Source: Catajapyx aquilonaris
Taxonomy: Eukaryota
Direction: 5' to 3'
Length of the DNA stretch: 51,004 nt
Assembly (NCBI GenBank): GCA_000934665.2
Contig: JYFJ02002779.1
Location: 1 to 51,004, forward strand
A program made the position numbers and the translations under genes. The stretch's first letter is position 1, and every line of letters begins with the position of its first letter. This document shows, in pieces, positions 4,692-47,761 of this stretch. The notes under the pieces were generated by a model that had not been told where the DNA came from, did not search any database, and saw only the letters and a list, made by a program, of their open reading frames with translations.

Positions 4692-4958
4692 AATAATTCA
4701 TCTGGCCGCCTTTTCCCCTTCCCGCCAAAAGTCCTAACTGCCACCTATTTCCTTTCCCGCCAATACAGGCCCCGGGTGAGTGCTGCCACCTTCTCATCAG
4801 GCCGGGGGTAGGGGGCGGCGGGTTGTGGGGTGGGTCAGTGGCCCACACACTCACTTCTCACTGCGCAGTGGAGAGTATGGTCGCTTTATTTCTGTCTGTG
4901 GTCAGTACCTTACGTCCTCACAACCTGCTCAGTGCCTCATATCCTCACAACCCGCACA

Positions 4959-6317
4959 ATGGACGAGGAGGAGGAGGATCCCATTGCTAGAAAGCGTCGG
5001 ATGGCTAAGGCACGCAAGGCTAGATGGCTAGCAAAGCAAAGTCAGGAGTCCCTGGACAGAATTCGTCAGGCAGACGCTGCAGCTCATCGCTTAGCACGCC
5101 ATCCTCTAACCCAATCCATTCCCGACGAAGCTATTCATTTTCTGGAGGCCCGAGTAGTTCCACACTTCTGCGGACCGTTGATTGTCATTTGCCACTTCTG
5201 TAAGTCCCGCAACTTTCTTACTGAACTTCCTTCTGATGGTAAATTCACAACTTGCTGCCGCAAAGGAAAAGTCCGATTAGAGACACCTCGAGATGATCAC
5301 GGGAATCTCCTGCCTTATCCTTTTTTCCTGCTTGACTTGATGTCCAATCCTGACAATCCTGATTATAGGAACTTCCGTGACAACATTCGCTCATACAATA
5401 GTGCTGTGTCGTTTGCGTCCATGGGAGCCAAAGTGGTTGATTTCAGTGGTGCCGGACCTTACGTCTTCAAAGTCCATGGTCAGATTTTCCACCGCACGAG
5501 TCACGTTCAACCAGTTCATGGCTTAGCTCCTCAGTATGCTCAACTCTACGTCATCGACAGTTCACAAGCTACGGAAATGCGAGTTCATCATCCCGCCAAT
5601 GAACAATGCCTCTCACGTGTTCTGGATCAGATCGACCGCTTCTTCAGGCTCCATAATCGACTCTCTGACACGTATCGCATGCTTCGGGAAGTTGAAGCTC
5701 AGGCAATTCTGCAAGCCAACGTGGCAGGTCTAGATCTTCCTGTGGTAAACCTGGTCTTCCGACGAGACCGTCATTCCGAGCAGCGCCACTATAACGATCC
5801 GACAGCCAATGAAATCGCAATGGTCTTTGTCAACAGCAATGGCGAACCTCCTTTCGAACGTGATATTCAGGTCTATCCCTTGAATCCGGTTGATCCGGAC
5901 CATGCAGCCGAAATAGTGTCGGAATGCAATCGCGGTCATGTCGTTTTCTTGCCCCGAATTACCTTAGCTCCCAGTGACATCAATATGCCTTTTGTTCTCA
6001 AACGCCGCCAGTTTCCTATCATTCCAGCTTATGCCATGACGATCAACAAGTCGCAGGGCCAGACCTTTGAGCACGTGGGCATTTACCTGGATGAACCTGT
6101 CTTCTCACATATGTGGCACTGTATGTGGCTGTATGTGGCACTGTCCCGGTCTCGCAACCCAAGTCAGGTCAAAGTATTCACTACTCAACTGCTCAACAAG
6201 GAACATTGCTCTCCAACAACAGAGTCTTTACACAGAATGTTGTATATCGCGAGGTTTTATGAAAAAGACTTTTCTCATGTCCGACTCAAGAAGTATAGCC
6301 TACAGTATGTCCACTGA
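4959..6317 (+). pseudogene. Helitron RepHel remnant: N-terminal Zn-finger region fused in frame to the PIF1 helicase C-terminus
   Basis: N-terminal RepHel motifs CHFC..CCRKGKV, IRSYNSAVSFAS, FKVHGQIFHR, AQLYVID, YNDPT. C-terminal PIF1 motifs LPRI..RRQFP..AYAMTINKSQGQT..VFSH..LYVALSR. The HUH Rep domain and Walker A/B are absent. Confidence 0.88.
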
Positions 6318-8249: not shown

Positions 8250-10210
8250 TTATGGGTTATGGACTTGTGGAATAGTCGTTTCATCAGCAGCAGTCGAGTC
8301 AGTGATAGTTGGGATGGTAAATGGCTCTGTACTCGGCGTAGAATATGTAGACGTACTGAACCCACTGGAACACATTGGAACATTGCTCGGGTCATCACAT
8401 TTTCCATTTGCATCATCGAACACCAGGCCGTTGGGACACGTAGCGACTTCGGGTATGCTGCCCTTATATTTGCACACAAAATATTTTGAGCAGTCGTCTA
8501 CGTTTCTTACTGTGACAACACCGTCACCGCACATGTTTTTACAAGCGGCTACATTTTCCATTATTTCGCACATCATGCCAACAACTGAGCATCAAAAGCA
8601 TAACCATCAGGACATTTGCTTACACTGATCAACTCTTTCGTGTCCGAACAGGTATACCCAATTGTTGGACATATATTTGCGCCTGGATACACATTCCAAG
8701 CAGAGGGTTTAAAGCAGTGAACTCCAGATTCAGCCAATGGTGTCAGGCATGTGTCAGCATCAAGACCACTTAAATCGTCGGGTCCAGCAACACTTACGCA
8801 CTTTCCACCAGCATTAGAACTGTCCTCTTTGAAATATCCACTTTTGCAACTTTTCATGACTGGTGTAAGAGCGTCTTTATAATATATCGACACCTGACAT
8901 GTGTAATACAGCATGCAATCTCTAGGGTACGCTTTCTTTATATTTGAAGCAGGTGATCCATCACATAATCCAGTTGCTGGTGTAGGCTTGCAGGAGGCTT
9001 CATCGGGTAAGTCTTCATCACATATCTTCGTAGCTGGATTAAATGCTTTATCGTTGTTACAGGTTTTGGGATGATCAATCAGACTGGAATCGCATTCGTG
9101 GTACATTTTACAGTCGTATGGATCGGGAAATCTACCCTCTTCGCCACATTGATATGGAACGCAGTTCGGTACATCAAATCTGCATCTTGCTTCTGGAGCA
9201 GTTGAATTGTCGCAGAACTTATTAGGTGAGCATGAACTATTCATCCAAGTGTCAGTAGCTGGGTTACATATTTTCACCTTACTGCAATCAATACACACTA
9301 TTTGTTCTGTATCAGGATCGCAACTTTCATCTGTCAGTCCAGAAATCACTCTGAGATACACGTTCGGATCAGGGTCTGGGCTACACGGCACCTAAAATAT
9401 GGGAATAAAGATCATAAATAACATTAGTCAATAGGGTACCTGTAGTAGGCTACTGTTTGTGAAAAATTTCTCATCATAGTTTGTTGTAGGCGTACAGTAC
9501 CAAAGTCTATATATGAACGTGTGCCTTTCCGCACTGTAACATATAGACAGGCTATCACTGATTCATATTTCAGTGTGTTGATTAATCTCAGCGTCATCAA
9601 GACGTTACAACAAAACGAAAGTTTATTTCATGAGCATACACTAAAAATTAATACAGGCTGCCCCAAACATTATTTCAAGGTTACTAAATTAGCAACAGTT
9701 CACAAAAGCTATGTACCTTCGGATCTTCTGGGTAACACAAATTCAATGTTGGATTAAAAACTTCTCCGTCAAGCATGTGCGTATCACAATCTCTGCTTTT
9801 CCCATGACTTGCACGCACTTGTAGAAATGGCGACAGTCGTCTGGATGCGGGTATAAAGTTCCCAATTCACATTTATCTCCGCCTTCCTGCCAGATCATTC
9901 CAATCCTGTTCAAATAAACATTTTCAATTAGAAATGTTTTTGAAATGTACATAAATGTTTGCAGATTAGAAACGTTTGAGGCAAATAGGCTGTTATGATT
10001 GACACTCGAACGTTTACAGCAGTCCAGTGCCAATATAAAATAGAGAAAAAACAACACTTATTAAATGACTTACTCACTACTATAAGCCCTGGCAATGAAC
10101 AAGCTCAGCACAAACGCCTGGAACAAAGTAAGATTTCAGTATTTTGTGACAGCGTTATGGAAATACATCTATCTTACCACAAATGCATGGTATAAAACTG
10201 ACTCCCCCAT
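8250..10210 (-). pseudogene. Peritrophin-like multi-CBM14 gene copy 1 (frameshifted: pseudogene or assembly errors)
   Basis: Exons 10210-10178, 10117-10074, 9905-9717, 9391-8250. 1-nt deletion in exon 3 at ~9771 (TGC TT GAC GGA, versus C-L-E-G in paralogs) and at ~8585. Has CBM14 motifs (PHPDDCRHFYKC, FPDPYDCKMYHEC, CPNGLVFDDANGKCD) and a Thr/Ser tail. Confidence 0.8.
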
Positions 10211-11429: not shown

Positions 11430-13246
11430 TTATGGGATGGTTGCTTTTTTGATCGGTGTCTGTGCTGGTGTAAGTGACGTATTCGTTGAGTTGGTGGTTT
11501 TGCTGGGAAAGATGGTGAAAGTTGGTCTGTTGGTTGTAGACAACTCCGTGGGAGTCGTGTATCCATTTATACAACGTGGAACGTTCATTACGTCATCGCA
11601 TTCCTCTATGGCATCATTGAACACCAAGCCATCGGGGCATGTATGGACTTCAGGCACGCTAATATTAGAGTGGCACACAAAATATTTCGAGCAATTATCC
11701 ACGTTCCTCGATAGGTTTCCTTTAATGTAGCTGCAATATTTTTGGCAGGACGGAACATCTTCAATATTTTGGCACACATCCGAGATGTTTTCGGCATTGA
11801 AAGCGTAACCATCATCGCAAGGAAAGACATACGACACCTCTAATGAGGCGGAGCAAGCATATCCTACTGTTGGGCATACATTTTTGTCTGGATAGACTTG
11901 CCAACCTTCTTCAAAACAGCGCCAACCAGAATCTGCCAATTGAATTTTGCAAGCATCGTCCGGCGGTGTTTGTGTCATGTTTAGGTCCACACATGATCCG
12001 TTATTTCTAGCACTTGTAGGAATAAAAAACTGACCAGTGCCGCAGCTTCTCATGGCTGGCAAAATCATTTCTGGGTACTTATCGGAAAAGTCGCACGAAC
12101 CATATTGCAAACAATCACCAGATATATCAAGTTTGCTGTCCAGTGATGGACAGTTTGTGGAAAAAATGGGCGCTTCACATTCTTTTGGATTAGCAGGCAT
12201 CGGCCTATCACACGTCTGAGTTCCAGGGTTGTACGCTTTGCCATTGTCACATCCTGTGAGAAAATCGTGCAGATCATTGTCACATATGTGGTACACTGTA
12301 CAGTCGTTTGGATCTGGAAATATACCCGCCTCGCCACACTGGAAGGGTACGCAGCTCGGAACATCTTCTGTACATTGCTGTGGAGTCGTGAAATTGTTGC
12401 AGAATTTATCACCTGGACAAGAACCGTAATACCAAATGTCAGTTACGGGGCTGCAGAATGTATAAATGGTGCAATTGAGGCACAGAGATTGTAGTCCTAG
12501 AGAAGTGTTGCACTCTACTTCCTTCTTGTTAGAGATGACTTTGAAGTACCTGCTTGGGTTTGCGTCAGGCTGACATCGCTCCTACAAATAGTGCATGAAG
12601 GGTAAGAATGATTGTAATTGCAACTATCTATTATCAGGTGTACGTAGCCTAATATGCAATACAGGCCTATCACCGAGTTATTAAATATATATAATTATTA
12701 GTGATCCATGGTCTTTTTCGATAGCAAATACAGGGTACAGTATAAGCTAGAATGTGCAACAAAGACCTACCATTGGATCCTCAGGATGACATGTGTTCAG
12801 CCTGGGATCAAAAATATCTCCTCCGAAGCATGTGCGTAGCTCAAGTTCTGGTTTTCCCATTCTGTCTGCGCACTTGTAGAATTGGTGACAGTCATCTGGA
12901 TGAGGGTACACCTTTCCCAGTTCACATCCATCAGCAGTTTCCTCCCACTTGTCGTGCCGTATGCTGCAGAGTGACATTTTCAGTTAACGAACTACGTAGG
13001 CCCCTACGTCGAAAATATTATTGTCGAAATTGTCGAAAAGTTCGACAAAATTATTCCGGGCAGTATAAATTGTAACCGAATAAAGAGGAATAAATATTTT
13101 TAACTTACTCTTCACTATTAACACAAGAAACCGACATGGCCACCAGTACCTACAATAGAAAAAGCTCCACTATTGCTTGGCCAAAATATGAGAAAAAAAT
13201 GTTTCATTACCAGCATAATAACAATGTCAAAAACTGTCTCTCCCAT
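11430..13246 (-). CDS. Secreted peritrophin-like multi-CBM14 protein copy 2 (~473 aa, intact)
   Basis: Exons 13246-13211, 13149-13109, 12963-12771, 12581-11430, all GT-AG, phases 0/2/0, open frame. Signal peptide MGETVFDIVIMLVLVAMSVSCVNS, CBM14 repeats and a Thr-rich tail. Confidence 0.9.
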
Positions 13247-14733
13247 TTTGATGTAACTCTTGATTCGCAGCAAAACTTAGACTTCACCTTGTATATCAGA
13301 AAGCGACACTAAGGTCTCTGAATAATATAGCCCACGAGATAAAATGAAATCAGTTAACTCAATTTGCACTTCGGACGAAGGAAAAACGACATTAAAAATG
13401 AAGTGCTGCCCTATACGAGATATGGGCATAATAATCGATTATCTGAATCAATCGGTTGTGTATCCTACATGATGGTCAACAAATTAATAAGGAAAAGTGA
13501 AAGTTCATCTCCAACATGAAGAAATACCTTTGGCAAAGGTGTTACTTCATATTGGAGATGAACTTCCACTTTTCCTTGTTCGATCTTCCTTGTGCCAGTA
13601 ATTATCTTGATACACAATCTCAACCGATAATTGAATTAGACGCACAAGGAAGTTCACGACTATATATTGATAACTCTAATAATTTTCTACTGATTCAAGT
13701 ATCTCCCCTCCCCCTCCCTCTAATTCAGTTTCTTCCATTCGTCAAACGTGATAAATGTGCCGCAGATTTAAAATGTTAAACCTCGCCTTCAATTACTAAA
13801 AGTTAATAATTGATTATACCACAAACTATCTGGCAGGTAATAAGGAAGAATACTTATCTTCTTCCTTTCCATGTGGAGTATTACCCGTCTGTCATAGATA
13901 TTAAAACTATACCTTTAATATCTATGCCGTCTGTACAGTATTCCACTCTCTGATCAGCCCATTCATTTATAAAAGATTTCGTTACCCTCCTTGTGATTGA
14001 GTATTACCGCCAAGAGGTGGAATCTTTTCGGCAATGTCATAATGAGGTCAAGTGCAAACTATGATGCAACGTGCCCAAACGTGTACCTAATAAATTACAC
14101 CTGAATTTAAATGGTGAATGCAGCCAATCGTGATGCTTCTCGGGCATGTAATGCATGTATTTTCACGATGGCTTAAACAGTGATCTTTTTGAGATCATAC
14201 CTTGATTACAGTACGTATACTATTCTTGGGTCCTTCACATAAATTTTGAGATATTCGCACACCATATCGCATAACAAATACTACCCGTAAATAGTGGACT
14301 ATAACATTATTGTGCATCATGAGACAATATATTTCTGTGAAATTTGTTGACTAATAATAAGTAATAGGATCGATTTAATATTGGTAGTGTCAGTCATAAT
14401 GTGAGACGAATAGAACAATATGTTCAAAAAATAAGGTCATAAATTTTTATTTCCACTTATACAGTACAATCCAGTCATATCGTTTTATACATAAAATATA
14501 TATTAGTGTGTTCTCAGCGAATCAGCAGACTGTATTTTTATCATCACTATACTACCGTATTACTATCATTAAAATTATTAACCATGAGGACTAAAAGACC
14601 TAATTTCCACATCATATATCAGGAGATTACAAGAGTCGACAAAATATTTTACCCGCTGCAGAACGCCCATTCTTTTAATCATAATAATTTTTCCCGTTCG
14701 TTAATGTACATTTTGTATTGCTGCAATTCTGTG

Positions 14734-16387
14734 CTATGGTGTACACACACTTGTGGGGAAGGCAGTGGTGGTGGATTCAGGGGAATGTGGCTGTGTACTT
14801 GGTGCATAAGTCGTGCGTCCATCCTCACATCGTGGTACATTTGTAACGTCATCACACAGCCCAGTGGCGTCATTGAACACTAATCCACCGGGACAGGTCC
14901 TGACTTCGGGTAAGCTGGTAGGAAATTCGCAAACAAAATATTCCGTGCAATTATCTACGTTTCTCGTTTTGTATGGCCGACTGTTGTTGCAATACTTTGG
15001 ACAAATCTGGTTGAAATTCAAGCACGTTTTGGAGTCATCTTCATCAAAAGCGTAACCATCTTGGCAACGGTAAACGCTGATTATTTCTAACCTCTCCGAG
15101 CAGGCATATCCTACTGTTGGGCACACATTTTTGTCTGGATATACTTGCCAACCTTGTGCAAAACATCGCCATCCGGCATCAGCCAATTGGATTTTACAAG
15201 CACCGTCCGGCGGTGTTTGCGAAACGTTTAGGCCTACACACGACCCATTGTTGGCAATACCTGGATGAAAAAACTCGCCAATGTTACAACTTCTCATGAC
15301 AGGTACAACAGTTTGAGTGAAATATCTGGACGGTTCGCATGTAAAATACTGCAAACAGTTGCCAGGTATACCACCCTTTGCCTGTAAATCTGATGATGAA
15401 GAGCAGCCTACAGTTGTCCTTTTACATGTGACTTCATCTGGCAATACAGCGTCACACACCTGAGTACCAGGATTGTACGCTTTGCCATTGTCACATTTAA
15501 GTGGAAGATCATTCAAAAAAACATCGCATATGTGGTACACTCTACAATCATGTGGATCTGGAAATATGCCCACTTCGCCACACTGATATGGTACACAGCT
15601 AGGAACATCTATCTCACATTTTTGAGGATTAGCGGAATTGTCGCAAAGTTTTCCGCTCGGGCACGAGTCATAGCTCCAAGTGTCAGTCACGGGGTTGCAA
15701 AATTTAAAGTTGGTGCAATTGAGACACATCGATTGTATTCCTAAAGAAGTGTTGCATTCTTCATCCGTCAAGCCAGACATCACACTTAGGTATAGGCTCG
15801 GGTTTGGGTCAGGCTGACATGGCCTCTACAATGAGCGCAAACGTTTAAAAATTAAAATTACACTTCATGTTCAATATTAACCATCTCAATATACTGCAAG
15901 AGAATAAAATTTTAGGGATGCAAAAATCGTATACCTTTGGATCCTGTGGATAACATAGCTTCAACTCGGAATTGAAGACATCTTCGAGGCATGTACGTAG
16001 CTCAAGCTCTGCCTTTTCAGATATATTTACGCACTTGTAGAATTGGTGACAGTCTTCTGGATGAGGGTACACCTTTCCCAATTCACATCCATCACCTGCT
16101 TTCTCCCAGCTCATACCAGTTCTGCGGAGTGTAGCATTTTAATAAAAATACTTAACTATTAAAACCAGTGAAATACAGTATAATGATTGTAGCAGTTTGA
16201 TGCAGAGCAAATTTGAATACATCTATGCTTCGCTTGTCATTAAAAACTTACGCTTCACTGTGATTACTGGTGAGGCACGTGATCGCCAACACCTGCGGTA
16301 GACAAGGATCCTAAATTGTATGATCACATTATGATAAAGTGTATTATTATTTACCACTATTAATGAGTTGATCATTCTCTGTCCCAT
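14734..16387 (-). CDS. Secreted peritrophin-like multi-CBM14 protein copy 3 (~450 aa, intact)
   Basis: Exons 16387-16355, 16292-16252, 16121-15935, 15825-14734. Signal peptide MGQRMINSLIVVLAITCLTS. Motifs PHPEDCHQFYKC and CPGGLVFNDATGLCD. Confidence 0.9.
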
Positions 16388-16737: not shown

Positions 16738-18409
16738 TCACTGGAGTGGTGGAAAATTATGGAAGCTTGGGTGTGTGGTGGTGGGCGAGGTGGGCGGGGA
16801 GGTGGGTGAGGTGGCAGGGGAGCTGGGTATTTCTTGGGTCGTTGTTGTGTGTTCATTTACACATCGTGGAACATTAATTAGGTCATCACATTCTTCCTTT
16901 GCATCATTAAATACCTGGCCATTTGGACAAGTACGGACCTCGGGCAAGCTGGTTGGAAATTTGCATACAAAATATTCCGTGCAAACGTCTACATTCCTCG
17001 ATTTGTATGACTTAATGTAACTGCAATATTGTTTGCAAGATGGGACATTTGCAAATTTGTCGCATTTCGAGGGATCTTGGTCATGCACAGCATAACCGTC
17101 AGAGCAGATTGAAACATTTACCAAATGCAACTCGTAGGAGCATCTATAGCCTACTGTTCTACTTATATTTGAATCTCCGTAAGCTTGCCAAGCGTCACGT
17201 GTCAAACAGTGACATCCAGAATCGGCCATTTTTACTCTACACGCATTGTCGCTTAAAGGTGCAACGTGTAAGTCCGTACACGAGTTATATCCGGAACTAT
17301 CGTCAGGAAAATATGTGCCAAATTGACAACTTCTCATGATTGGTATTAAGGCTTTCGGATAGTGCGTAGAAGTTTCACATTTGACATAATGCAAGCAATC
17401 GCCAGTTACATCGGGCGTTCAAAAAGGGACAGTTTGTAAGAATGGACTTCATCGGGCAACACCCCGTCACACTGCTGAGTTCCTGCGTTGTACGATTTTC
17501 CATTGTCACATGGTAAGTGATTATAATGCAGGTCGTCGTCGCATACGTAGTACGAACTGCAGTCATATGATGGGTCGGGAAACACACCCACTTCGCCACA
17601 CTGGAAGGGTATGCATCTCTGGACATTACCTGCAGGCACGCATCTCTGGGGATCAGAAGTATTGTCGCAAAGCTTGTCACTTGGGCATGAACCGTAAGTC
17701 CAAGTGTCAGTTACGGGATTGCAGTATTTTAAACTGGTGCAATTGAGACACGCAGATTGTAATCCCGCAGAAAAATCGCACTCTTCATCCGTGATGTCAG
17801 CCGAGTACAGGCTTGGGTTTGGCTCAGAATGACATGCCTCCTAAAATTGCACAAAAGCAAAATATGCAACAATAAATTATAATAATTGTATGACCGGCAT
17901 TTACAATTGCTAGAGTATTATTAACCTTGCTGGTCAGTGCAAAAACATACCTTTGGATCTTCAGGTTGGCATATATTCAATTTGGGATTGAAAATATGTC
18001 CCTCTAAGCATGTACGCAGCTCGAGTTCTGGTTTTCCATTTCTTTCTAGGCACTTGTAGAATTGGTGACAGTCATTTGGTTGCGGGTACACTTTTCCCAG
18101 TTCACACCAGTCAACAACTTTCTCCCAGTCTACACCAGGTTTGCTATAGCAGAGTAATATGTTCAAAGTGAGGGAAATATTAATTCGTCCAGAGCTGCGA
18201 TTGAAACGCACAACAAATATACAGACAAACATGAAATGTTTGGTTAATTAAATTTAGAACTTACCTTCCAGTTTGCGCACATATAACGCTCACGATCACC
18301 AGTACCTGTAGTAGAGAGAAATCACGGAGAATGTTTGGCGTAATTTTGACGAATAAAATGTAACTATCATTACCAGCACAAAATCCGAGAAGAAATATTT
18401 GCCTCCCAT
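16738..18409 (-). pseudogene. Peritrophin-like multi-CBM14 gene copy 4 (probable pseudogene)
   Basis: Exons 18409-18374, 18305-18265, 18143-17951, 17840-16738. A deletion/frameshift at ~17410-17445 gives a stop at 17406. A conserved Cys is lost (SNISRTVGY versus KNVCPTVGY). Confidence 0.8.
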
Positions 18410-19076: not shown

Positions 19077-21044
19077 TTGAGGGTCGATGTAGTCGTTTTC
19101 ATTGTTGTAGTGTATTCATTTACACACGGTGGAACATTCCTTACGTCATCACATTCGCCTATGGCATCATTGAACACTAGGTTTGGGGGGCACGTCTTGA
19201 CTTCAGGTAGACTGTCAGGAAATTCGCAGAAAAAGTACTTCGAACAATCATCTGGGTTTCGCGACTTGTACGGACGGCCATTATCACAATACCGTTGGCA
19301 AGCCTTGATTTCTCCATATTTTCTGCACAATGCGTCCAATGCGTCAAACGCGTAACCATTCGGGCAAATTAAGATAAAGATCACCTCTAACGTATTGGAG
19401 CAGACATAACCGGTTGTTGGGCATGCATCTGGGTCTGGGTAAGTTTGCCAACTATTTTCTTTCAAGCATCGCGATCCAGAATCAAACATTTGTATTTCAC
19501 AAGAAATGTCTCGTACTGCTTGTGCACCAACGTAGACGCACGACCCATTGTTTCCCTTGTCTCCTGGAAGGAAAAACTCACCACTTTTGCAACTTCTTAT
19601 GACTGGTACAACGACTTGTGGGAACTGCCGAGAAGGTTCACAAGAGGCATAATGCAAACAATCGCCAATTACAGGCAAGGATACGTTCAATGAAGGACAC
19701 CTTGCAACAATTGGTTCTTTACAAAAGACTTCGTATGGCAATGGTAAATCACATGTTTCAGTTCCGGGATTGTATGCCTTACCATTGTCACATTTTTGGG
19801 GGAAATCATTCAGATTTCCATCGCAAATGTGGGACACTCTACAATCATATGGATCGGGAAATATCCCCGGTTCGCCACACTGGAAGGGCAGACATCTCCG
19901 GACATTTCCTGCTGGCACACACACTTGGGGAGATGCAGAATTGTCGCAATACTTTCCATGCGGACACGAGCCGTAAGTCCAAGTATCGGTAACGGGACTG
20001 CAATATTTTGAAATCGTGCAATTGAGACACTCAGATTGCAATCCCGCTGAAGGATCGCATTCTTCATCCGTCATGTCAGAGATCACTCGGAAGTGCACGC
20101 TCGGATCAGGATCAGGCTGACAGGATTCCTAAAAAAATGTAAATTATTGTCCATTGCCCCAAAAACTCATTACATTAAACGTGAACGAGCAGAAGACCAA
20201 GAAGAAAATGTGAGCATATATGTAATATGGCTACTTGATACCCGTATATCTTTCACCTTTCTCATTCCATCATAACTAAAAATATTAGTGCCCTAAGTGC
20301 ATATTAGTCCATGAGTCCTACAGATTCCTACTCTCACCTGTCATCTGTTTTCTTCTGTCCGTATCATTATGGAACACTCTGGGTGTGTCAAAAAACATAC
20401 CTTTACATTCTCTGGATAACATAAATTCAATTGTGAATTGAAAACATCTCCTTCGAGGCATCTACGTAGCTCAAGTTCCGGTTTTCCACTTCTATTTGTG
20501 CACTTGTAGAATTGGTGACAGTCTTCTGGGTGAGAGTATAACTTTCCCAATTCACATAAATCACCGGCAACTTTCTCCCGGTTCACCGAGGTTCTGCAGA
20601 GAGTCGCATTTGTAATTAAGCATTAGCAAAAATACGGTATAGGAGCGTTTTTGAGGGAACTTAATTTTTTGTTGTGAAATGAGGCGTTAATCTGGAAAAA
20701 CACGAACTACGGCACTTGCGCAAAGGTTTGTCCATACTCAACATAATTGCAATGTAATTGTGGACATTACGGCCATAGAAATGTGTCCGATTTTCACGCG
20801 ATTTCTGCAGCCATGTTATTCAAATGGACGTTTCGAAAGCGTCGTTTTCCACTCACTTCAACTGGTCGTAAACATAATCTTATTATTAATATAATTCTCT
20901 CTCAAACTTACGCTACACTCTGAGCGCAGAAAAGCCATATTCCTGCCAGCACCTGTAACAGAAAATGCTCCAAAATTGTTTGATGAAACTGTGACAAAAT
21001 GTAATAATTACCACGATGTATGAGTTGATAATATATCTGCCCAT
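19043..21044 (-). CDS. Secreted peritrophin-like multi-CBM14 protein copy 5 (~450 aa, intact)
   Basis: Exons 21044-21012, 20952-20912, 20593-20401, 20128-19043. Signal peptide MGRYIINSYIVVLAGIWLFCAQS and CBM14 repeats. Confidence 0.9.
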
Positions 21045-21811: not shown

Positions 21812-24800
21812 ATGGGCGTCTCGACGTGGATTACTGCTTTTGTGGTATGAAATCTCTGTTCTCAATTCAACGTCGCGCGATAGTAATTCTGCTCTTTCTC
21901 CAGGTCCTTGGCATATGCTACTCCGTTCCGACAGCAGGGTATTGTTATGCTAGCCTTAACAAGTAGTAGGGATAGTGGTAATGTTTCTGTACATTTCAGA
22001 ATTAAAGTTAACAAATATGATGACTTGATGGCATCCACCTTAAGCTCTGATCCTGAAGACTGTCACTCATTCTACACACACGCCAAAGAACTCATATCCT
22101 GTCCTGAAGGCATGATGTTTGATCCAGTACTACGTGTCTGCGTTGAGGAGGATGAACTGGTATGCATGCATGATGTGATCTTGTCGCAATATGTTGTCTT
22201 TAAAGACAATCTACTCGCCTCAGTTCATTACGTTCCTACTGGTAGGAATTAGAAGTCAATAATTATATTGTATTTTTTTTTTCATTACCCCACTTAGGGA
22301 GCTACCTACTCCTATGGGGGGGGGGGGTGGATTACCACCATCGGGATTNATTTGTTGGAGCTAGTTAAGAAGATCTTATTAGTTACTCCAAGGGCAGGTA
22401 GGAGGGGATGTGCAGATGTGCAAAGTGCATGTGCACTGTCGTTGAGTGGTCATTTTGTGAACTCCCCCGGGTGGATTAGTCTTTAGGAAATTTCCACCCG
22501 AAATGAAGCCAGAGATGGCCCAACTCCGCACGGATAAAAGTGGGAACCCCGGGTGGGGATTGAACCCGGGACCTTCATATCCGTGGGCGCGCGCGTTACC
22601 GCGGCGCCACTTCATCTCCCTAATATATTATAATATTATGAATATTCATTATTTTACCAGGTACATAATATCCGAACCTTTTCCACAAAAGTGGCTGAAA
22701 TATCACCTGGTAAAAATGATTCAATAATGATTTAAGCCGATATTTAACATTCCATGCATGGGTATATTCAAAATATTATTTGAGAGAGAATTACTTGTGT
22801 TGGGTGCAGCTGTAATTATTAGCAAGACTTCAGTATAAACAGCTACAATAATCTTGACATGAAAAATGTAGTACAATATTATTAGCATAAGCATAAATGT
22901 CATCAAACATTGCATGATCTGAAAGGGCACGTTTGTTTCACGATGGACGATTGATATACGCTTACTGTCGTTCTTAGTAGAAGAAAACCTGTTGCAAAAG
23001 TAAAATCTGTAGCTTTCCTAATGTGTTACAAAAGTACAAAAATAATTTTTGGAAAGTTGTGATTTTTCACTTTTTGAAGTTGTGACCTCAGAGGTCAAAG
23101 GTTACCTTCTATGCCGATTACATAATCAGAACACAGACTGCCTCGTTACGCTTTGCTTTAATGATCAAGGTAGGATTACAGCACTTGTTACAGCTCACCT
23201 CAGGGGAGACGACCCCCCAAGCGTCCGCCCTACTTGGCTGCCTACACTCGACTCCCTCCTCCCTCTCCCCCGCCTCTCCCCTCCCCGCCGCCGGCAAGTG
23301 GTGCCTCTCTCGGCGCGGCGGGGAAGAGCAAAGCGGGCAGTACAATTCTGTCACAAAGTCTGATGTTGCTACACACAGGGCGTACTCCGAAAGTATTCAA
23401 CCATGTTTACGTATTACAGCTTCCAGTATACCGTTATGTTATTCATTGCTGAATGGATTCATTGATTGCCAAAGCGCAGGCTCTCCAAGTGCTGAACCAA
23501 GAACTAATAATAATTGCAACCAGTTTCAATATATGGTAATCCGGGGAGGCGGAGTGGTGCTGCGGTAACGAACGCGCCCACGGATGTTAGGACCCCGGAT
23601 TCGATGTTTCGATCCCAAGTCCGGGCATTCCCCCCTTCATCTCGTGCAGAGTTGCGGTCGCCTCTGCCTTCGTCTCTGGTGGGATTCCTGGATACTAATC
23701 ACCCGGGGGAGTTCACAAAATTGACAAAAATTAATGACATTGCACTGCACCTTGCACATCCCCTCCCATCCGCCCTGCCCGTGGACCCGGGCGCTTAGTA
23801 CAAAGGTTCCGATGTACAATGTACTCGTAAAAACAATCTCAATAAAGGTCCGTGCGATATACCCCATGGGGAGGGGGGTGAAAGCACTACCCACGATTAC
23901 AGTAAAACCTCTCTATGTTGGACACCGATGGTTCCATTTAAAATGTCCAACATAGGGAGGTGTCCAACTTATTAGGATTTCAGCCTTAAAGGAATGGTTC
24001 AGTGATTTTGTATGTTGGGCTTCAGAGATCAAGGAAGACTCCCTGATTCCAAAATGTGGTCAGTTTTGGAATCTGACGCCGCGTAAACAAATGCCGTTAG
24101 GTGAAAGTCCATATCCGCTACTGTATTCGATACGGTAAGCGTACAGCCAGCGCTTCCCGCGGAAATGCCGGTACCCTGCCACCACTGTGGCCAATGAGAT
24201 TGGCTTAGTCTCGGAGCCCATTTTTTTCATCTTTTCACGGGACACGGGTTCCCTCTAGCCACAAGAGTGAAAGCTTCGACCACTGCATCGAAGCTTCCAG
24301 TCTTGTGGCTAGAGGGAACCCGTGTTCGGCGCTGATTAAAAAAAAAATCAACTTTGACTTTAAATTTTACGCTTATGGTGCATTTGCCAACAAAACGGAT
24401 CGGATATTTCAAATCAGGGAGTCGTGTTTGATTTTTGGAGCTCAACATGCAAAATCACTGAACCCTTCCTTTAAGGGTTTCATATGCATCACAGTAATGT
24501 AGAGTACCGTACAATTCAAAGTACTGTACAGTATTCATCCAGTATCAACTTTTTTATTTATTTTTATTTATTTATTTATTTTACCCCGTGATACAACTCC
24601 AAGTCGTTATAGGGGGTGGCATACCACCATCAGTTTTCCAGTGTTTCGCAACTTTTCTTCTCTCTCCGGTGCAAGGAATGAAGGACATTGGGTAAGCGTA
24701 AGGATATGGATTTTTCGGGAGGGGGACATGGGTGCAGGTGCAATGTCTCAAGTTTGAGCAGTCCCCCAGGAGGTTAGGTTGCCAGACGCATCCAAGGTGC

Positions 24801-25354: not shown

Positions 25355-27050
25355 TGGGTATGGGCGTACCCCTATTGGGGTTTTGCCTGGACCTTTATTA
25401 TTAATCAGCAGTACAGCTGGATCATATTTATCACGCCCGGGCCCACGGGCAGGAAGGGATGACAGGAGGGGATGTGCAAGTGCAGTGCCTTGTCCGCATG
25501 TGGCCGTTTTGTGAGCTCCCCCGGGTGGTTTAGTCTGTAGGAAATACCACCCGAGACGAAGTCAGAGACGACACTTTACTCTGCACGAGATGAAGGGGGT
25601 GTCCCCGGGCCGGGATCGAACCCGGGACCTTAACATCCGTGGGCGCGAACGTTACCGTTGCGCCACTTCGCCTCCCCTCTGTTTTTCATATCATTCTAAC
25701 TTCATCAAATTCTCTGCGTGTATACCTGACCAGTCACCGGAGAATACATTGTCATCGGTCAAACGAAATGGCTTGGTGCTACGTCACCTGCCATTTCTGG
25801 CTACCCCTCCATGGGGCAATGCCGTGATGTTTGTATGTAAGTTATGTACATATGTAACTGTGAAAATGCACTGTCCTCGGTACTGTCCGTGTCTAACGTA
25901 AGAGAAAAAAGTGTCCAACTTCCAGATAGAGGTGCCCAACTTAGCAACATTGCAAGGAATTGGCTTTTTGAAGGTTCCAAAAATATTATCATCATCATCA
26001 TCATCATCATCATTATTATTATATGGTAATCTATGCCGATGTCACTTCTTCCAGGACCCGTGCAACCCAAAGCCTGGAGACAGGATATGGAATGTTCATG
26101 CTCCAAACCCACCATGTACCACCTCTGCAGATGTGGGACACCCAATCTGCGCAAATTGCAGTTATGTTGGTGTTTGCCTTCCGTCTGGGCCTAGTAGTTT
26201 TGCCTATCAGTATTACGAGTGCATTGATGGGCAGTCCTGCAATGAACAGTCAAAACCTCCATCATGCCAAGACTACGTTCCACAATGCCAGGATAATCCA
26301 TTCCAATGCGGAGGAGACGGGATGTATCCGGACACCCACGACTGTTCGGTCTACCACACTTGCAAGGACAAGAATGACACGATTGGCACCTGCAGTGGCA
26401 CCGCATTTAATCCAGGATCGCAGCTCTGCGACGCACCTAAGAATCCCAAAACTTGCAATGTGCCAATTGCTATATGTGACAAGCTGACTCCCTCTACTCT
26501 TAGGCTAAAAATCACAGGAGACTGTCTCGGATATTACATGTGTACTCCAAATACATTCACTAACAAAACACGTCTAGCAGGCACCTACTTCAGTTGCCCT
26601 GATGGTCAGGCTTTTATTGAAAACACCTCCGATAAAACAAAAAGCGCATGTAGTGACGATATGTCAAAGGTGAAGGACCCTCAATGCCTAGCACAGCTTG
26701 CAGACACAGGAGTAGTTTGCTTCAAGGCAGGAGTTAACACAAGACCAGGTAACCAGTGTCCTACAAAAGCCTACTACTGCAGTTTTGATTATAAAACGCT
26801 TGTGAATATTACCTGCCCCGATGGACAAAGCGTCTATAATGGAGCTTGTTACGATTTTACAAGCGTACCAGGTTGCAAAAACATTTGCGAAAATGGCGAA
26901 ACAATGGTGCAGAATCCAGATGATTGTACCACTTACTTCAAGTGTGACAGTGCATTTGATTTGCCGAAGGTCACCAAATGTGGTGGCACAAAAGCCTTCA
27001 ATAATGAAACTAAAACATGTGAATATAATGTGCCCCGTTGTCACACCTAA
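21812..27050 (+). CDS. Secreted peritrophin-like multi-CBM14 protein, divergent plus-strand copy (~407 aa)
   Basis: Exons 21812-21844, 21904-21938, 22000-22159, 26055-27050, phases 0/2/0. Signal peptide MGVSTWITAFVVLGICYS. First CBM14 is degenerate, there is no Thr-rich tail, intron 3 is 3.9 kb and TE-filled, AATAAA near 27228. Confidence 0.85.
22273..22620 (-). mobile_element. tRNA-derived SINE (family of 23543 and 25303)
   Basis: Minus-strand head gtggcgccgcggtaac...gggttcaatccc, shared body (cccgggggagttcacaaaa, ttgcacatc), A-rich tail. Confidence 0.75.
23543..23895 (+). mobile_element. tRNA-derived SINE
   Basis: ggggaggcggagtggtgctgcggtaacg...ttcgatccc head. Body is homologous to the reverse complement of 25303-25679. 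Confidence 0.8.
23900..23985. mobile_element. Left end of a Tc1/pogo-type MITE, interrupted by the TTAA element
   Basis: TA|CAGTAAAACCTCTCTATGTTGGACACC...gtccaacatagggagg, a terminal palindromic arrangement typical of pogo-like MITE ends. Confidence 0.5.
23990..24470. mobile_element. TTAA-flanked MITE (Kolobok-like), 481 bp
   Basis: TTAA|AGGAATGGTTCAGTGATTTTG...CAAAATCACTGAACCCTTCCT|TTAA, ~60-bp imperfect TIRs, internal hairpin at 24242-24325. Confidence 0.85.
24552..24916 (-). mobile_element. tRNA-derived SINE (second family)
   Basis: 13-bp TSD ccagtatcaactt (24539-24551, 24917-24929), A-box TGGCCGAGATGG, B-box GGTTCGATCCC, (TAAA)n tail. Confidence 0.88.
25303..25679 (-). mobile_element. 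tRNA-derived SINE with (ATT)n tail
   Basis: 13-bp TSD tgtttttcatatc (25290-25302, 25680-25692), A-box TGGCGCAACGG, B-box GGTTCGATCCC. The tail is the (AAT)n run at 25303-25353. Confidence 0.9.
25988..26013. repeat. (ATC)n microsatellite in intron 3
   Basis: Direct reading. Confidence 0.9.
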
Positions 27051-35721: not shown

Positions 35722-38700
35722 TCAGTCCTCTTCATCCCTGTTCTGGTGTCTGACTGACTGCAGATGACGCTGCTCTGCGTAGTAGCTCTCTTCCTGATAG
35801 CCACTGTCCCTGGAGGTATAGGTGGTGAGCATGTACACAACAGCCTCGTACGTGCTCATCATGATGGCGGTGTTGGGTATCTGCCTGATGAGCTGGGTGG
35901 TCAGCCCACGGTACAGCCCCCTGTAGCCTTCTTCCCTCAACACGGTGGACAAGGTCTGCCAGAAACCCTTGTACTTGTTCCCCTCTTCTCTGAGGCGGGT
36001 ACGAGCAACCTCTGCACACATAAAGGGCAATAATTAGGCTATGAGCAGATATGTAATGTGTTTTGTTTAATGAGATGCATCTCATAATCATTTCTTTGAT
36101 ACTAAAGGTTAAGGGCGCCAGGCCGCACCTCCAGCAAGACGCCCGCATTACCGGTACAAAGAGAACGCTGAACCTACAACTCAGCCAAACTTCACTCGTG
36201 AGTTGGAAAAATCGCGTAGGTATCCGGCGCCCTTAACACATGTAACCCATGCTAAATCACACATATTTGAGTACGAAGCCTTCAGTTTTCTCCAAGTCAC
36301 TTAAAAAATGACAGCTCATTGGGGCTTCCTACTTATCAGTCACTACTTCCTATTAGAAGTGACAAATAAAAACTTTCGCTGTGAAATTTCTCTATGGAGG
36401 GCAGTACGACATTTCAAAAACACCAATCATGTCTGCATGTCAACAAAGTAAGCAATAGTGATGGAATAGGCGACTAGAAAGAGTGCAAAACTGGTAGTGA
36501 AAGTGCAAAAATGTTTTATGTTGTTGATATTGCCTAAAGAAATACTTGCGTCCTGCTGTTTAGCAAGTGTGTGTGACACAAAATTTGCAAAACAGGTTTA
36601 ACTGCCTTAAAGACTGGGACATCAAGGAGCAACTGCCGCACTCGCTTTCCAGCAGTCACATGGCAGTCAATCAAAGGCTGACGTGATACGTGCAAATAAA
36701 AATTTGCAAATGCCCAATAATACAGAAAATGCATGAACAATGCAGTTTCATTTCTCAGTAGTAGTATGCTTTTAATTCTGTAAATGTATTATTGACACTA
36801 TTGTCGTCATTGTGAAGTCATAGGCACCTGACAGGGTCCTGCAAATGGGCTTCATCCTCACTCTGGACCATGGATATTTGACCTGCTCTGATCATAGGGC
36901 AAACTTTACTGTGCTAGTTGGTAGGAAGCCAACTTCTAACTGGTTGTATCAGTACTATAATTTCCTCAAACATAATTATGTATACGCCTGTGACATCACA
37001 AGTTTTCCAGGCAACTCATTGGACACCCTCATGATGGTTCATCATCCCATTTTTGGCCTCCCCTGTACTTCAGTTCCTTTCATCAGTGATAAAGAATGAC
37101 AACAAAATAGCTTGTGGTGACATTTAATTGCTATGAATCAGAGTCACCACAAACCCCTCAAGATAGCCAATATCTCCTTGGTCATACACACAGGGTGCTG
37201 CTCTGGCCAAGTTGATGATCCAGAGCTGGATCAGGAGAAGAGTTCATGATTACTCACACCTGGGTGATGTAAACAGAGTGAGTGTATGAAGTGATAAAAG
37301 GAGACCCAAACCATGTGCTGACTCTTAGGGAAGTTTGAATGCAAAGCAAGACTTACTCATTAAGCTATGTTTGTACATCCCTTCCCCTCTTTGGAGAATC
37401 AACTTGGACAGAGAAACACCTCAGTATACCATACAGTATAATGGAATTCATGTGCTTAATTTATCTGACAGGTTATAGTACCATTCAGTATTTAAACGAA
37501 GCTTGCTCTTATTTAAAAAAGCCAGTGGATAGCATGCAAGTTCATGCTGACCAAGTGTCTCTGTTTAGAAAAATTATACACAAGGGAGTGATCAAGTCAT
37601 ACTGACCATGAGGGTAGGCAAGTGTGGAGGCCACTGTCTTGGAGACTGCCCCGGCAAACATGAATTCAAAGAAGTCCCTGGACGACTTGTGATCCCCATT
37701 TCCATTGGTCCTCCTCGTCCTGTACTCCTGCAGCTTCGCTTTTATGGCCTCGTATATCACAAAGTGGACCACCGTCTCCGAGATGCCGTAGTATGATGCA
37801 GTGATTCCCTTGTAGAAACCAACAACACCCTGCAAATAGTAATACATTGCATTAGTAATCGATTTCATCAGCAGAACTGGAATTTTACTTTTCATTCTCT
37901 GCTGAAAGTCTTTACCCCTTGCTGGTAGATCCTCTTGACACACTGAAGGGTGGACAGTTTCTTCCCGGCATGTTCCTGGTCAAGCTGAAGCCTGGTCTTC
38001 ACAAACCAGATGGGGTTTGTCAGGGTGCACGCCACAAAGCCTGAGGAGATAAGAGAGCACATTAGGGTCCATATGCCACAGACTAAATATCGCCCAAGAA
38101 CAAAAACAGGAGTCGCATTGAGGGCAAGATAAATAAAACTATTTATTTTTGGACCACAAGAGGAAGCAGAGAATATCAAAATATATTCTTTCAACAGGCT
38201 TCCCTTTTCTCTGTGCATTACAACTCTATTCATCCTGTGTTCTGGATGTAATAAATAAGTCATAAGCCACTAGTTCTTTACTGAAATAAGATACTGACAT
38301 ATTTCTTCAGCAGTCATTTACAAAGAATTGTGAATGAGAGACAACTCATCTAATGACAAGATTTGCTCCACTGAAGATAGTGTTGGGGCAAGGTTTAGAG
38401 TGAAGTGGTTGTTAGTAATAGTTTCCAAGTGTTGATAACATCTGCTAGACCTTCTGTGGTGCAAACACTCTGAATATGTAACAGTTCGTAGAAAAATAAC
38501 ACCGCTCATTTTTACAGCACGTCAAACACCGAAATAATGCAGCAATCCTCCCGAAACTTTAAAAAAAAAATTTTCAGTATCACCTGCCTGGTGTTTTGCT
38601 CACTCTCTGAAAAATGACATGCCGCACACCTGAATTAGGACGTAAATTTACGGCTCTCTAAATCCACACACTTGCAGCATCAGTGTAACATCTGCCCTGA

Positions 38701-41700: not shown

Positions 41701-43228
41701 GCTGGCGGAAATCAGCAGCTTTTACTTTCCCCTGATTTTTACTTATGCAGCAAAACTGGATTGGTGCAGAGAACACGTGTACAAACATCCATAAATCATT
41801 TTGTCACGAAATCCCCCCAAAATAGATTTTAAGTATGCCCTGCATGAAGTTGATTTATGATCAGTACATCATGCACGTACACTTGAAACTCATGTGTACG
41901 TTCAATCATGAAGTGTTCAAAGTACATGTCACCCAAAAACACTCAGAACAAGTGACATAACCTAGGCCTCGCAGCCTTGTGCTTCATTCAAAATGCGTTT
42001 ACCATTGATAAAATGTGCAGTCACTGCTTCAGAAGGCTGCATTACACATCAAACAAAGGTTGTTAACATGCCAATCAAGGCCACACACAACAATGTTCAT
42101 AACAATCTCACAATGCGGTTCGCATATATTGAGAACGTGTAACAATTTTTTTCTAGAATAACCCCAAAGTGTCCTCAGGCAGCCTTGGGATCATCATCTA
42201 CACATTTATCTTGCCCCCGACCAGACTTCATAGGTCTCCGGGTGTCAAACACAGTAAATCCAGTTAGAACCAGATTTTCTGAATCGAATCAAACATTCCT
42301 GCTCTTTGCCACTTGACCCAAAGCACCCTTCCTTTGACTCCCAGCATTTTTATTTTTCTTTTGGAAACTGAACACGTCTTGGCTCGTACTGGATTCCAAG
42401 CTGACCCTCGGGTCAAGTTGCCATCAAGCTCATAAAAAGTTGCAATAATTGCCCTTCCCAATGCTCCACATATAAGACCTGATTAAAACTGATGCCCACC
42501 TCAAGCACTTCATGACTCCCATGTTGCTTGGACGACCACCAGGCATAGGACCCGAATCTGCAATTGTGAAAAGATGCGCCGCCTTGCAGGAACTGCACGT
42601 GCTGAACCTCAACCTCTGCTCGCGTCTCGGGCTGCCATTGGACACACCTGAGTTCCCCTCGGACAGTAGCGTCTTCCCATTAGTCTTCAGATGGTTCGTG
42701 AAGTGCGCATAAGACGACTGGAGCCTGGTCTTGACCACCTCTAACGGGCAGGTTGCAATTGCGCCTGCGGTTCCGCCGACCCTTTAAGAACAAAATATTA
42801 ATTAGTGACCCCGACTTGGTTTGATTAGGAAGGAGCCGAAGTAACTTTCTGGCTTGCTGTACAGCAAGGGGTTAGTCACTTGATACTAGTGTACGATGGA
42901 CTTGACTTCAGCGAGACTTTAACCGGACTTCCGTCTCATTGTACAACGGACTTCACCGACTTCAACTAGACTTCAGTCTTGGTGTGCAACGGGCTTTATG
43001 GACATCACGTAGACTTCAGTCTCAGTATACAATGGACTTCACGGCCTTCAGTCGGTGCCCTCTTCTGTCTCAGTGTACAACGGAATTCACCCGGACCCAC
43101 ATAAGTGACAAACCCCTCGCTGCACATGCCAATTGCACCTTAACGACATGCTCATATGCAGCCTAATAAAGTGTGTTCTCAACTCACCCTCCGGCGACCA
43201 GGTGTATGAAGGTATCCTTCTGCGACAT
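35722..43228 (-). CDS. SLC25A36: Mitochondrial pyrimidine nucleotide carrier SLC25A36/SLC25A33 (Rim2 homolog), ~379 aa
   Basis: Exons 43228-43188, 42781-42500, 41529-41351, 38040-37916, 37829-37607, 36011-35722. N-terminus [14 protein letters not shown]; carrier signatures [31 protein letters not shown]; also [17 protein letters not shown] and [10 protein letters not shown]. Confidence 0.95.
36113..36232. mobile_element. Short TTAA-flanked MITE (120 bp)
   Basis: TTAA|GGGCGCC...GGCGCCC|TTAA, GC-rich island in the last intron of SLC25A36. Confidence 0.55.
42885..43097. repeat. Degenerate ~42-bp tandem repeat in SLC25A36 intron 1
   Basis: About 5 units of gtctcagtgtacaacggacttcac...gacttca. 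Confidence 0.75.
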
Positions 43229-46280: not shown

Positions 46281-47761
46281 ATGGAGAGTGTACTTTTTCT
46301 ATTCATGTCCGTATTGTTGGTCAGTACTTGTGTTCTTGCCCTTTAGTTGTACAGCGAGTAACAATTGGTTCGATTTTTACAGGTAGACGCCCACATTGTG
46401 CAAAATCCAAGCCATCCAGGACCATTCTCAAGGTATTGGCACAATTTTTAAGAACATGCCATCCAGAATGCAGTTAACAATACTTGTTTCAGCTCTCTCT
46501 GCAAGAATGTGGGGATCAATCGACACCCGACTAACTGCCACAAATTCGTCGTTTGCACACTAACCGGCAACAAGACGTTCGATGTGAAAGAAGGCAGCTG
46601 TCCGGAAGGAATTTACTCCGAGACTCTCCGCTCTTGTGTCCCTGAAAGTGACGTAAGTACGCATATTCTTCATTGTATAGATAACAAAACTGACTTATGA
46701 TACATCCAAACATCCAGAAACTGCAGTGCAAAGAGTGGCCTCTTGCTCTGTCCGTGAAAGCACCGCCGCAGACCACGGGAAAGGACCAGTGTGCCGAAAT
46801 TGGTATGACCTGTTCCAGCGACTGCAAGAGCATCCGGATGTGTTACCGAGGCACAGACAACCATCTGAAGGCGTACAACGTGTCCTGCGGAAACTTCTTC
46901 TGCAAAGATGGCTCCTGCAGCTACGAGTATCCGCCTCTCCTGTGCCAGACGACTGGAACCAAGAGGGACTCGAAGACGTCGTACTTCCAATGTGGGATCG
47001 AGGGAACCTTCCCGGACTACCGAGACTGCCGGATGTACCACATATGCAACAAGACACTGCACAACGTAGAGATGACCTGCCCTCCGGAGAAGATGTACAA
47101 CCCAAGATCCGAGAAGTGCGACTTGGACTACGATGAGGAAGAGTGTTTGCCCAGCATCCTCCAGAAACCATGCAGCGGAGAAAACAGCTGCGGGTTCCGT
47201 CCTTACAACCGGTTTTGCAGCCTGTTCTACTACTGCCAGCCTAGCAGGAACAACCCGTACAACATTGTACCGGTGCTGTACAAGTGCCCGAAAGGAGAAG
47301 GATTTGACCCCACCAGAGGGATATGCGACATAATTCCTCTTGGTCAAGAGTGCGCCGAGTTGTCCGTTTGTCAGAAGAAGGGTTTCGTCCAGAGACAGTC
47401 GCTGAAATGCACCAGTCGGTACGAGTTCTGCTATCCGGATATCGACAGGGCAAAGGTCTTCACTTCGCTGGAGTTGCAGTGCAACAATGGGCATATCTAC
47501 GACTCGGAGAATGAGCGATGCGCGCACATCAACAGTGTGAAGCACTGCAGGCCCAACTGCAAGGACAAGGCGCCTGGGTTCCACCGGATTCTGGGAGACT
47601 GCTCTGCGTACTATGTGTGTGTGAACAAGAGGGATCAGCCCATCTCTTATTTGTGTCCGAAGGGATTGGTGTTTAATGTGGAGATAGAGCAGTGTGATTT
47701 TGTAGAAAATGTGCCGTACTGCGTCAGGCCGCCTCACAGCTCGTCCATCACTCTCCATTAA
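46281..47761 (+). CDS. Secreted peritrophin-like multi-CBM14 protein (~430 aa, intact, divergent member)
   Basis: Exons 46281-46319, 46383-46432, 46493-46652, 46718-47761, phases 0/2/0. Signal peptide MESVLFLFMSVLLVDA. Motifs HPTNCHKFVVC, FPDYRDCRMYHIC, CPKGLVFNVEIEQCD. Confidence 0.9.

Follow-up and report, generated by a model that had tools for sequence, protein, structure and literature searches.

The closest precedent for the protein module described here is the insect eight-cysteine 'putative CBD' of the Pp3put type, which occurs in PpPer3 of the sand fly Phlebotomus papatasi; related domains are described from Lutzomyia, Aedes, Culex and Ctenocephalides (PMC3597473). These eight-cysteine variants of the peritrophin-A domain, described in 2013, escape the domain-recognition tools and are without aromatics, and their authors suggested neo-functionalisation; the Pp3put signature is C-x10-C-x5-C-x11-C-x14-C-x10-C plus two extra cysteines (PMC3597473). 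For canonical CBM14 domains (peritrophin-A, ChtBD2; Pfam PF01607), a six-cysteine register of C-x13-20-C-x5-6-C-x9-19-C-x10-14-C-x4-14-C has been quoted (PMC8035744), with disulfides pairing C1-C3, C2-C6 and C4-C5 (PMC10619976). In this study, we analyzed a stretch of 51,004 nucleotides from Catajapyx aquilonaris (assembly GCA_000934665.2, contig JYFJ02002779.1, positions 1 to 51,004 of the forward strand; hereafter the window, with positions counted from its first letter) and characterized computationally an eight-cysteine module that occurs in seven copies in a family of peritrophin-like genes. We consider it probable, at roughly three chances in four, that the module is a strongly diverged CBM14 domain that would have drifted beyond the reach of the family profile. 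We put this no higher because the structural model behind it rests on few sequences and a structural Z score near 6 is not decisive alone. On this reading, the module is a lineage-specific variant of the known CBM14 fold with one extra disulfide, and no new kind of domain.

Additional cysteines are familiar from other members of the fold. Tachycitin, another protein with the CBM14 fold, has ten of them. Fungal Avr4 is a CBM14 protein with eight cysteines and four disulfides, in which the extra bond of CfAvr4, between Cys50 and Cys56, locks a local loop on the N-terminal side and is itself in contact with chitin (PMC6128652), and PfAvr4-2, with ten cysteines, binds pectin (PMC8104879). The modified peritrophin-A domains (mPAD) of AgAper25a and AgAper29 from Anopheles gambiae have two additional cysteines; eight occur in the peritrophin-B domain, which is 81-88 residues long (PMC5776124). 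Pp3put was compared by its published description.

Like canonical CBM14 domains (for example, those in 8in3, 4zce, 6so0, 2mfk and 1dqc), the module has a predicted 3+2 fold, six cysteines in register, a length of about 55 residues and a tandem setting in secreted arthropod proteins. Unlike them, it has eight cysteines, matches no Pfam family, and carries cysteine in place of both the strand-4 aromatic and the proline that precedes canonical C2. With Pp3put it shares the peritrophin-A register with two extra cysteines, the failure of domain tools to recognize it and the loss of aromatics, as well as its place in a secreted peritrophin with a mucin-like region. The likeness to Avr4 lies in a CBM14 fold with an added disulfide, which in the module is a predicted one, and in Avr4, too, one member has a changed ligand; however, the extra cysteines of the module are 26 residues apart in different sheets rather than in a short N-terminal loop. 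As a peritrophin domain with two added, or eight, cysteines, the module also resembles the mPAD and peritrophin-B domains, but at 52-58 residues from first to last cysteine in the seven copies it falls short of the 81-88 residues of peritrophin-B.

The seven copies were located by running a loose regular expression for the eight-cysteine register over the six-frame translation of the whole window. The register was matched seven times, compared with no match in 100 shuffles of the window (mean 0, maximum 0). Copy 3, at 15595-15756 on the minus strand, has the pattern C-x9-C-x2-C-x5-C-x11-C-x5-C-x8-C-x6-C that an earlier note on this DNA had claimed for it, and the six further copies are those named there, with the spacings stated for the genes near 26 and 46 kb confirmed. 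On the minus strand these copies are copy 1 (9161-9322; spacing 8,2,5,11,5,9,6), copy 2 (12351-12512; 9,2,5,11,5,8,6, as in copy 3), copy 4 (17613-17780; 9,2,5,11,5,8,8) and copy 5 (19892-20059; again 9,2,5,11,5,8,8). On the plus strand they are the module of the gene near 26 kb (26115-26288; 10,2,5,14,5,8,6) and a divergent one in the gene near 46 kb (46790-46945; 6,3,5,14,4,4,8). In addition, a half module with the last four cysteines only (spacing 4,8,6), recognized by eye, opens the large exon of an eighth family gene at 48879-48944 on the plus strand. All eight cysteine columns are invariant across the six closer copies in a MAFFT alignment; the 46-kb copy keeps the eight cysteines and their order, but its loops differ and it is poorly alignable with the others. 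The N-glycosylation sequon, N-C-T/S, which had been put forward as conserved, is present in five of the seven copies, being replaced by D-C-S in copy 1 at 9 kb and by D-C-K in the 46-kb copy.

The predicted fold is stronger evidence for a CBM14 relationship than the sequence comparisons are. The AlphaFold2 model of the copy 3 module, built on a seven-sequence alignment, reached a predicted local distance difference test score (pLDDT) of 87.4 and a predicted template-modelling score of 0.66, with the pLDDT of the five models ranging from 81.7 to 87.4. Its strands, at residues 11-13, 18-23, 28-33, 39-41 and 48-50, follow in 3+2 order, as in the distorted beta-sandwich of CBM14, where one antiparallel sheet has three strands and the other has two. 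As a control, the canonical CBM14 domain 5 of the copy 3 protein was folded likewise (pLDDT 84.0; strands 9-12, 19-23, 31-34, 39-42 and 47-50). In a comparison of the module model with 48,161 representative chains of the Protein Data Bank (PDB), 22 chains reached a Z of at least 2, and the top five are all CBM14: EHEP (8in3_A; Z 6.3, root-mean-square deviation 2.6 over 54 of 58 residues; control 8.3), Avr4 (4z4a; 5.3, control 6.3), Der p 23 (4zce; 4.8, control 6.5), Avr4 again (6bn0; 4.7, control 6.7) and the CBM14 domain of chitotriosidase (6so0; 4.1, control 4.9). Three further entries, Blo t 12 (2mfk; 3.7, control 5.1), Der f 23 (5zjl; 3.2, control 3.5) and tachycitin (1dqc; 2.9, control 5.0), complete the eight CBM14 structures common to the module and control lists, and the same unrelated entries, 7t6a and 7p4l, come next in both.

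The cysteine register points in the same direction. When C2 and C6 are treated as ordinary residues, the remaining six cysteines have canonical spacings of 12,5,11,14,6 in copy 3 and 13,5,14,14,6 in the 26-kb copy, so that the module satisfies the published six-cysteine register in all but the first spacing of the tandem copies, which is 11-12. An hhalign comparison with the 13 CBM14 domains of the window places C3, C4, C5, C7 and C8 of the module on canonical C2 to C6. It also places C6 on the Y or F of the G-K-A-Y/G-L-V-F motif, as had been proposed from inspection of the sequence, at an alignment probability of only 18%. An ungapped extension of the same alignment brings module C2 onto the proline three residues before canonical C2.

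Several observations weigh against a diverged CBM14 domain. The Pfam CBM_14 profile (gathering score 22.1 bits) gave no row for any of the seven isolated modules even at an expectation value (E) of up to 10, and that hhalign alignment is weak, with its probability of 18% accompanied by a P of 0.0013 over 41 columns. The first canonical spacing of 12 in copy 3 is slightly short of the published 13-20. The model was built on seven sequences that all come from one genome, its Z scores for the eight entries common to both lists trail the control by 0.3 to 2.1, and according to the tool a Z under 8 can mean merely a common arrangement. Finally, Foldseek found nothing in the PDB at E<=0.001 for the module model. 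Its weak rows are crowded with CBM14 entries, the best at E 0.7-3.9 with template-modelling scores of 0.44-0.52.

Searches of sequence databases added few relatives. A profile of the module had no match in the PDB sequences at E<=10. A word-index protein search gave eight candidates for residues 1-110 of the copy 3 exon and 428 for the whole exon, with no match among either; for a profile built from five paralogous exons, one of 1,172 candidates was a match, namely P0002, an ordinary protein with two CBM14 domains and without the module. In the ESM Atlas, arthropod CBM14 clusters appeared at 0.76-0.88, values to be read as leads only. When the module profile was run with HMMER against all of 1.84 billion representative proteins, a single marginal match was returned (P0001; E 6.2e-4), which is KAJ3333081.1 in NCBI, a hypothetical protein from the chytrid Blyttiomyces sp. 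JEL0837. It has three repeats with seven or eight cysteines, of the form C-x10-C-x3-C-x3-C-x9-C-x5-C-x8-C, and has W-x-Y-x-x-C-P-x-G-x-x-C-x8-C in common with the module. By hhalign the two are weakly related at best (probability 3.4%, P 0.013). The chytrid protein belongs to no Pfam family, its only row being CBM_19 at E 2, and its repeat may be an unnamed fungal cysteine module.

These searches bear on the reading that the module is an unrelated small disulfide-rich domain, CBM14-like in topology only and inserted between two CBM14 domains. Such a domain would be in keeping with the missing Pfam CBM_14 match, the low hhalign probability and the Foldseek result, and likewise with a sole database match to a chytrid protein that has no CBM14 annotation. 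The module's best sub-threshold Pfam scores, each from one copy, belong to Dickkopf_N (E 0.0089) and to AWS (E 0.096); we rejected the two families as far under their cut-offs and present in only one or two of the seven copies. The search for an existing named family proposed in the earlier note ended without one, as none of the seven isolated modules reaches any Pfam cut-off. We nevertheless regard an unrelated domain as highly improbable. Among 48,161 structural comparisons the top five places all go to CBM14, a true CBM14 domain of the same protein retrieves an identical list, six cysteines stand in the canonical register, and the module shares one exon with four CBM14 domains, adjacent domains being joined without linkers.

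A CBM14 origin also leaves room for a closer kinship with the insect variants, in which the module and the insect eight-cysteine 'putative CBD' would come from a single old subfamily (Pp3put, Ll3put, CfPL1put, Ae45put, Ae51put, Ae52put and Cq16put on the insect side) and the module would represent an arthropod-wide, non-chitin-binding branch of CBM14 rather than a local invention. According to the published description, the two extra cysteines of Pp3put fall in the C1-C2 and C4-C5 intervals, as they do in the module, and Pp3put is missed by standard tools and has lost the conserved aromatics (PMC3597473). The module spacings of 12,5,11,14,6 share the unusual 11 and 14 of Pp3put. However, the HMMER scan described above returned no insect protein at E<=0.001 and gave no sequence similarity to the insect domain, a result with which a distant relation would still be compatible. 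According to the same paper, the second extra cysteine of Pp3put stands at alignment column 53, seemingly nearer to canonical C5, and five columns past the aromatic at column 48, whereas the module has its cysteine at the aromatic itself. The insect domain is also N-terminal, in contrast to the module, which is the second domain of its protein. A shared subfamily is unlikely in our estimation. Less likely still is the broader proposal that the module and Pp3put-like domains together form one old arthropod-wide branch, in which a buried contact between proline and aromatic would have given way to a disulfide and chitin binding would have been surrendered for another ligand (a protein, a glycan or a polyphenol), a branch that would be without a model in the domain libraries and missed in every peritrophin census.

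Within a diverged CBM14 domain, the two additional cysteines occupy defined positions of the predicted fold, 26 residues apart. Module C2 closes strand 1 and precedes canonical C2 by three residues; neighboring domains have proline or valine at this place. Module C6 lies inside strand 4, six residues past the preceding cysteine; the control has a phenylalanine likewise six residues past canonical C4 and in strand 4, and this strand-4 aromatic is replaced by cysteine in all seven copies. If the canonical six keep their pairing (C1-C4, C3-C8 and C5-C7 in module numbering), C2 and C6 must pair, and we infer that they form a fourth disulfide. A different pairing is conceivable, because C6 and C7 face each other across the strand 4-5 hairpin of the model, and this counts against the arrangement that we favor. 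The four-disulfide CBM14 derivative postulated in the earlier note held up as to a CBM14-type fold with two added cysteines, as predicted by the model and calibrated by the control, and the fourth bond itself would follow from conserved pairing.

The same note had interpreted the exchange in strand 4 as the loss of a chitin-contact aromatic, an interpretation that the structural literature did not bear out. Our numbering of the strand-4 Phe of chitotriosidase (CHIT1) and of the matching Trp of Avr4 fits the printed one. The complex of Avr4 with chitohexaose is the only CBM14-chitin complex, and the contacts listed for it are Lys49, Cys50, Met51, Pro53, Lys99, Trp100, Cys101, Asp102 and Tyr103, with Pro451, Leu454 and Trp465 as key residues of CHIT1 (PMC6128652); the replaced aromatic is absent from these. 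Human chitotriosidase has seven aromatics, of which six are given as exposed, and the strand-4 Phe does not belong to those six (PMC4844120). The insect literature predicts chitin binding at this aromatic position, which is a prediction only (PMC3597473). The replaced aromatic is probably buried, more likely a residue of the core than a contact with chitin, and the exchange would then have put a covalent bond where a core contact had been. The role in protein-protein binding or cross-linking that the note attached to this loss is conjectural, and its premise is weak.

A buried position would also be compatible with a module that is a fully working chitin-binding CBM14 domain, stabilized by the extra disulfide and binding chitin as well as its neighbors do. 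In such a domain the CBM14 fold would be retained, as in the predicted model, and the replaced residue would have made no contact. Aromatics do stay on strands 2 and 3: the strand-3 W-x-Y is kept in the five tandem copies and the strand-2 aromatic (F or Y before C4) in four of six copies, and the exposed Phe437 and Phe446 of CHIT1 lie on strands 2 and 3 (PMC4844120). An aromatic two residues past Cys 7, the fifth canonical cysteine, is found in two of the seven copies, but the canonical neighbor domains are likewise mostly without one at this place, and the module is thus not obviously worse equipped than they are. Against a stabilized binder stand the positions of CHIT1 Leu454/Trp465 and CfAvr4 Trp100/Tyr103, as mapped by hhalign. 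That of Leu454 is lysine in five of the seven copies, no aromatic stands before Cys 7, and the others are mostly non-aromatic. Moreover, EHEP and Der p 23 are proteins of the CBM14 fold that do not bind chitin (PMC10619976), and recombinant PpPer3, with its eight-cysteine variant, bound no chitin, a result for which its authors allow other causes (PMC3597473). We put the likelihood of chitin binding by the module at somewhat short of even, and we entertain the stabilized, fully working binder only tentatively, as clearly short of even.

Despite its divergence, the module has been maintained. The pairwise ratio of nonsynonymous to synonymous substitution (dN/dS), for pairs with an estimable dS, is 0.12-0.42 in the module, 0.14-0.46 in CBM14 domain 2 and 0.10-0.22 in domain 5, and the module is under purifying selection about as strong as that on its CBM14 neighbors. 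With dS at 0.8 or more, near saturation and often not estimable, the ratios can be taken only as approximate, and the paralogues are of old origin.

The modules belong to a family of about eight genes. Five form a tandem row on the minus strand (8.2-20.8 kb); the other three lie on the plus strand at about 22-27, 46.4-47.8 and 48.4-49.6 kb. Their proteins begin with a signal-like segment, followed by a CBM14 domain, the module as the second domain, four more CBM14 domains and a tail rich in serine, threonine and proline. Copy 3 illustrates this order, with four coding exons that are in frame and total 450 codons. On the minus strand, exon 1 (16353-16387, its end taken from a contig joint) has the start codon and the beginning of a hydrophobic N-terminus that we assigned as signal-peptide-like by eye from its hydrophobicity, from which secretion of the family proteins is inferred. 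Exon 2 (16252-16290) is 39 bases long, and exon 3 (15935-16121) encodes CBM14 domain 1 (Pfam CBM_14, E 2.4e-05), the sixth cysteine of which is encoded by the following exon. This large last exon (14734-15825) includes a single open frame of 363 codons at 14737-15825 and contains the module, four CBM14 domains, the serine-, threonine- and proline-rich tail and the stop codon. Domain 2 (15424-15582) begins four residues past the last cysteine of the module; domains 3 (15196-15405) and 4 (15001-15165) are divergent and were recognized by hhalign against canonical CBM14 at probabilities of 92% and 95%, respectively, and domain 5 (14827-14991), the control used for folding, is canonical and the best Pfam stretch. 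The flanking domains of the exons that hold the modules do match Pfam CBM_14, as does every large exon of the family (E 1e-13 to 2.6e-22 for complete exons). Since the middle regions are CBM14 by hhalign as well, the module lies inside a tandem CBM14 array.

The exon boundaries of copy 3 were taken from contigs of the public run X5, whose kind (DNA or RNA) is not recorded. These contigs join 15825 to 15935, 16121 to 16252 and 16290 to 16353, and one extends beyond the stop codon to 14479 in the 3' untranslated region; a spliced X5 contig also covers the module of copy 2. The segments that they skip (15826-15934, 16122-16251, 16291-16352 and 12581-12769) have CT..AC ends, which are GT..AG on the minus strand. 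A contig of the DNA run X1, by comparison, crosses 13322-16060 unbroken. From these contigs we conclude that the family genes are transcribed and spliced. Those parts of copies 1, 4 and 5 that had no contig cover were left out of the evidence for gene models.

Not all members of the family are intact in the assembly. Copy 1 (8253-9391, minus) is split into two frames at about 8583, and an X1 contig is two bases shorter exactly at this point (depth 22.5 of 52.2), a difference by which the two frames would become one; the broken form may therefore be a polymorphic allele. Copy 4 (16741-17840, minus) has a frame break near 17409-17440, between CBM14 domains 2 and 3 and 3' of its module, with loss of the sixth cysteine of domain 2, and is likely a pseudogene. 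The frame of the eighth gene (48457-49637, plus) ends in a run of asparagines near the end of the window, and this gene may be truncated or decaying. An isolated CBM14-like exon at 21887-22249 (plus) is just at the Pfam cut-off with 22.4 bits and has the third canonical cysteine missing. The large exon of the 26-kb gene follows about 4 kb downstream of it, and the DNA between the two is GC-rich and repeat-like and includes a single N (22349). Elsewhere in the window, a 501-codon open frame at 4812-6314 (plus) matches the helicase C-terminal family UvrD_C_2 (E 5.6e-08) and coincides with a rise in GC content to 0.52; from this match and this rise we read it as a likely piece of a PIF1/Helitron-type helicase, probably mobile DNA. 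Exons of a mitochondrial carrier (Mito_carr) gene, at 37895-38269 and 42433-42783 on the minus strand, lie between the two groups of CBM14 genes.

Taken as a diverged CBM14 domain, the module would be the second of six CBM14 beads in lineage-specific, secreted and mucin-tailed proteins of the peritrophin type. It would have retained the distorted beta-sandwich of 3+2 strands and the six canonical cysteines, and would have gained two, C2 at the end of strand 1 and C6 at the aromatic of the C-P-x-G-L-x-F/Y motif. The predicted C2-C6 bond would staple the two sheets together, a hydrophobic core contact giving way to a covalent one. Its most likely role would then be to give a multivalent matrix protein a rigid unit that resists proteases.

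As eight-cysteine variants of this sort were already on record, the gain in knowledge is incremental. If the model is right, the module offers a clear case from nature of how a very small fold can trade a core contact for a disulfide. It also touches on how these proteins are counted, as Pfam or SMART matches underlie the numbers of chitin-binding domains given for arthropod proteins of the gut and cuticle. If a domain of the CBM14 fold can drift past the profiles while still under selection, such proteins would carry more beads than are annotated.

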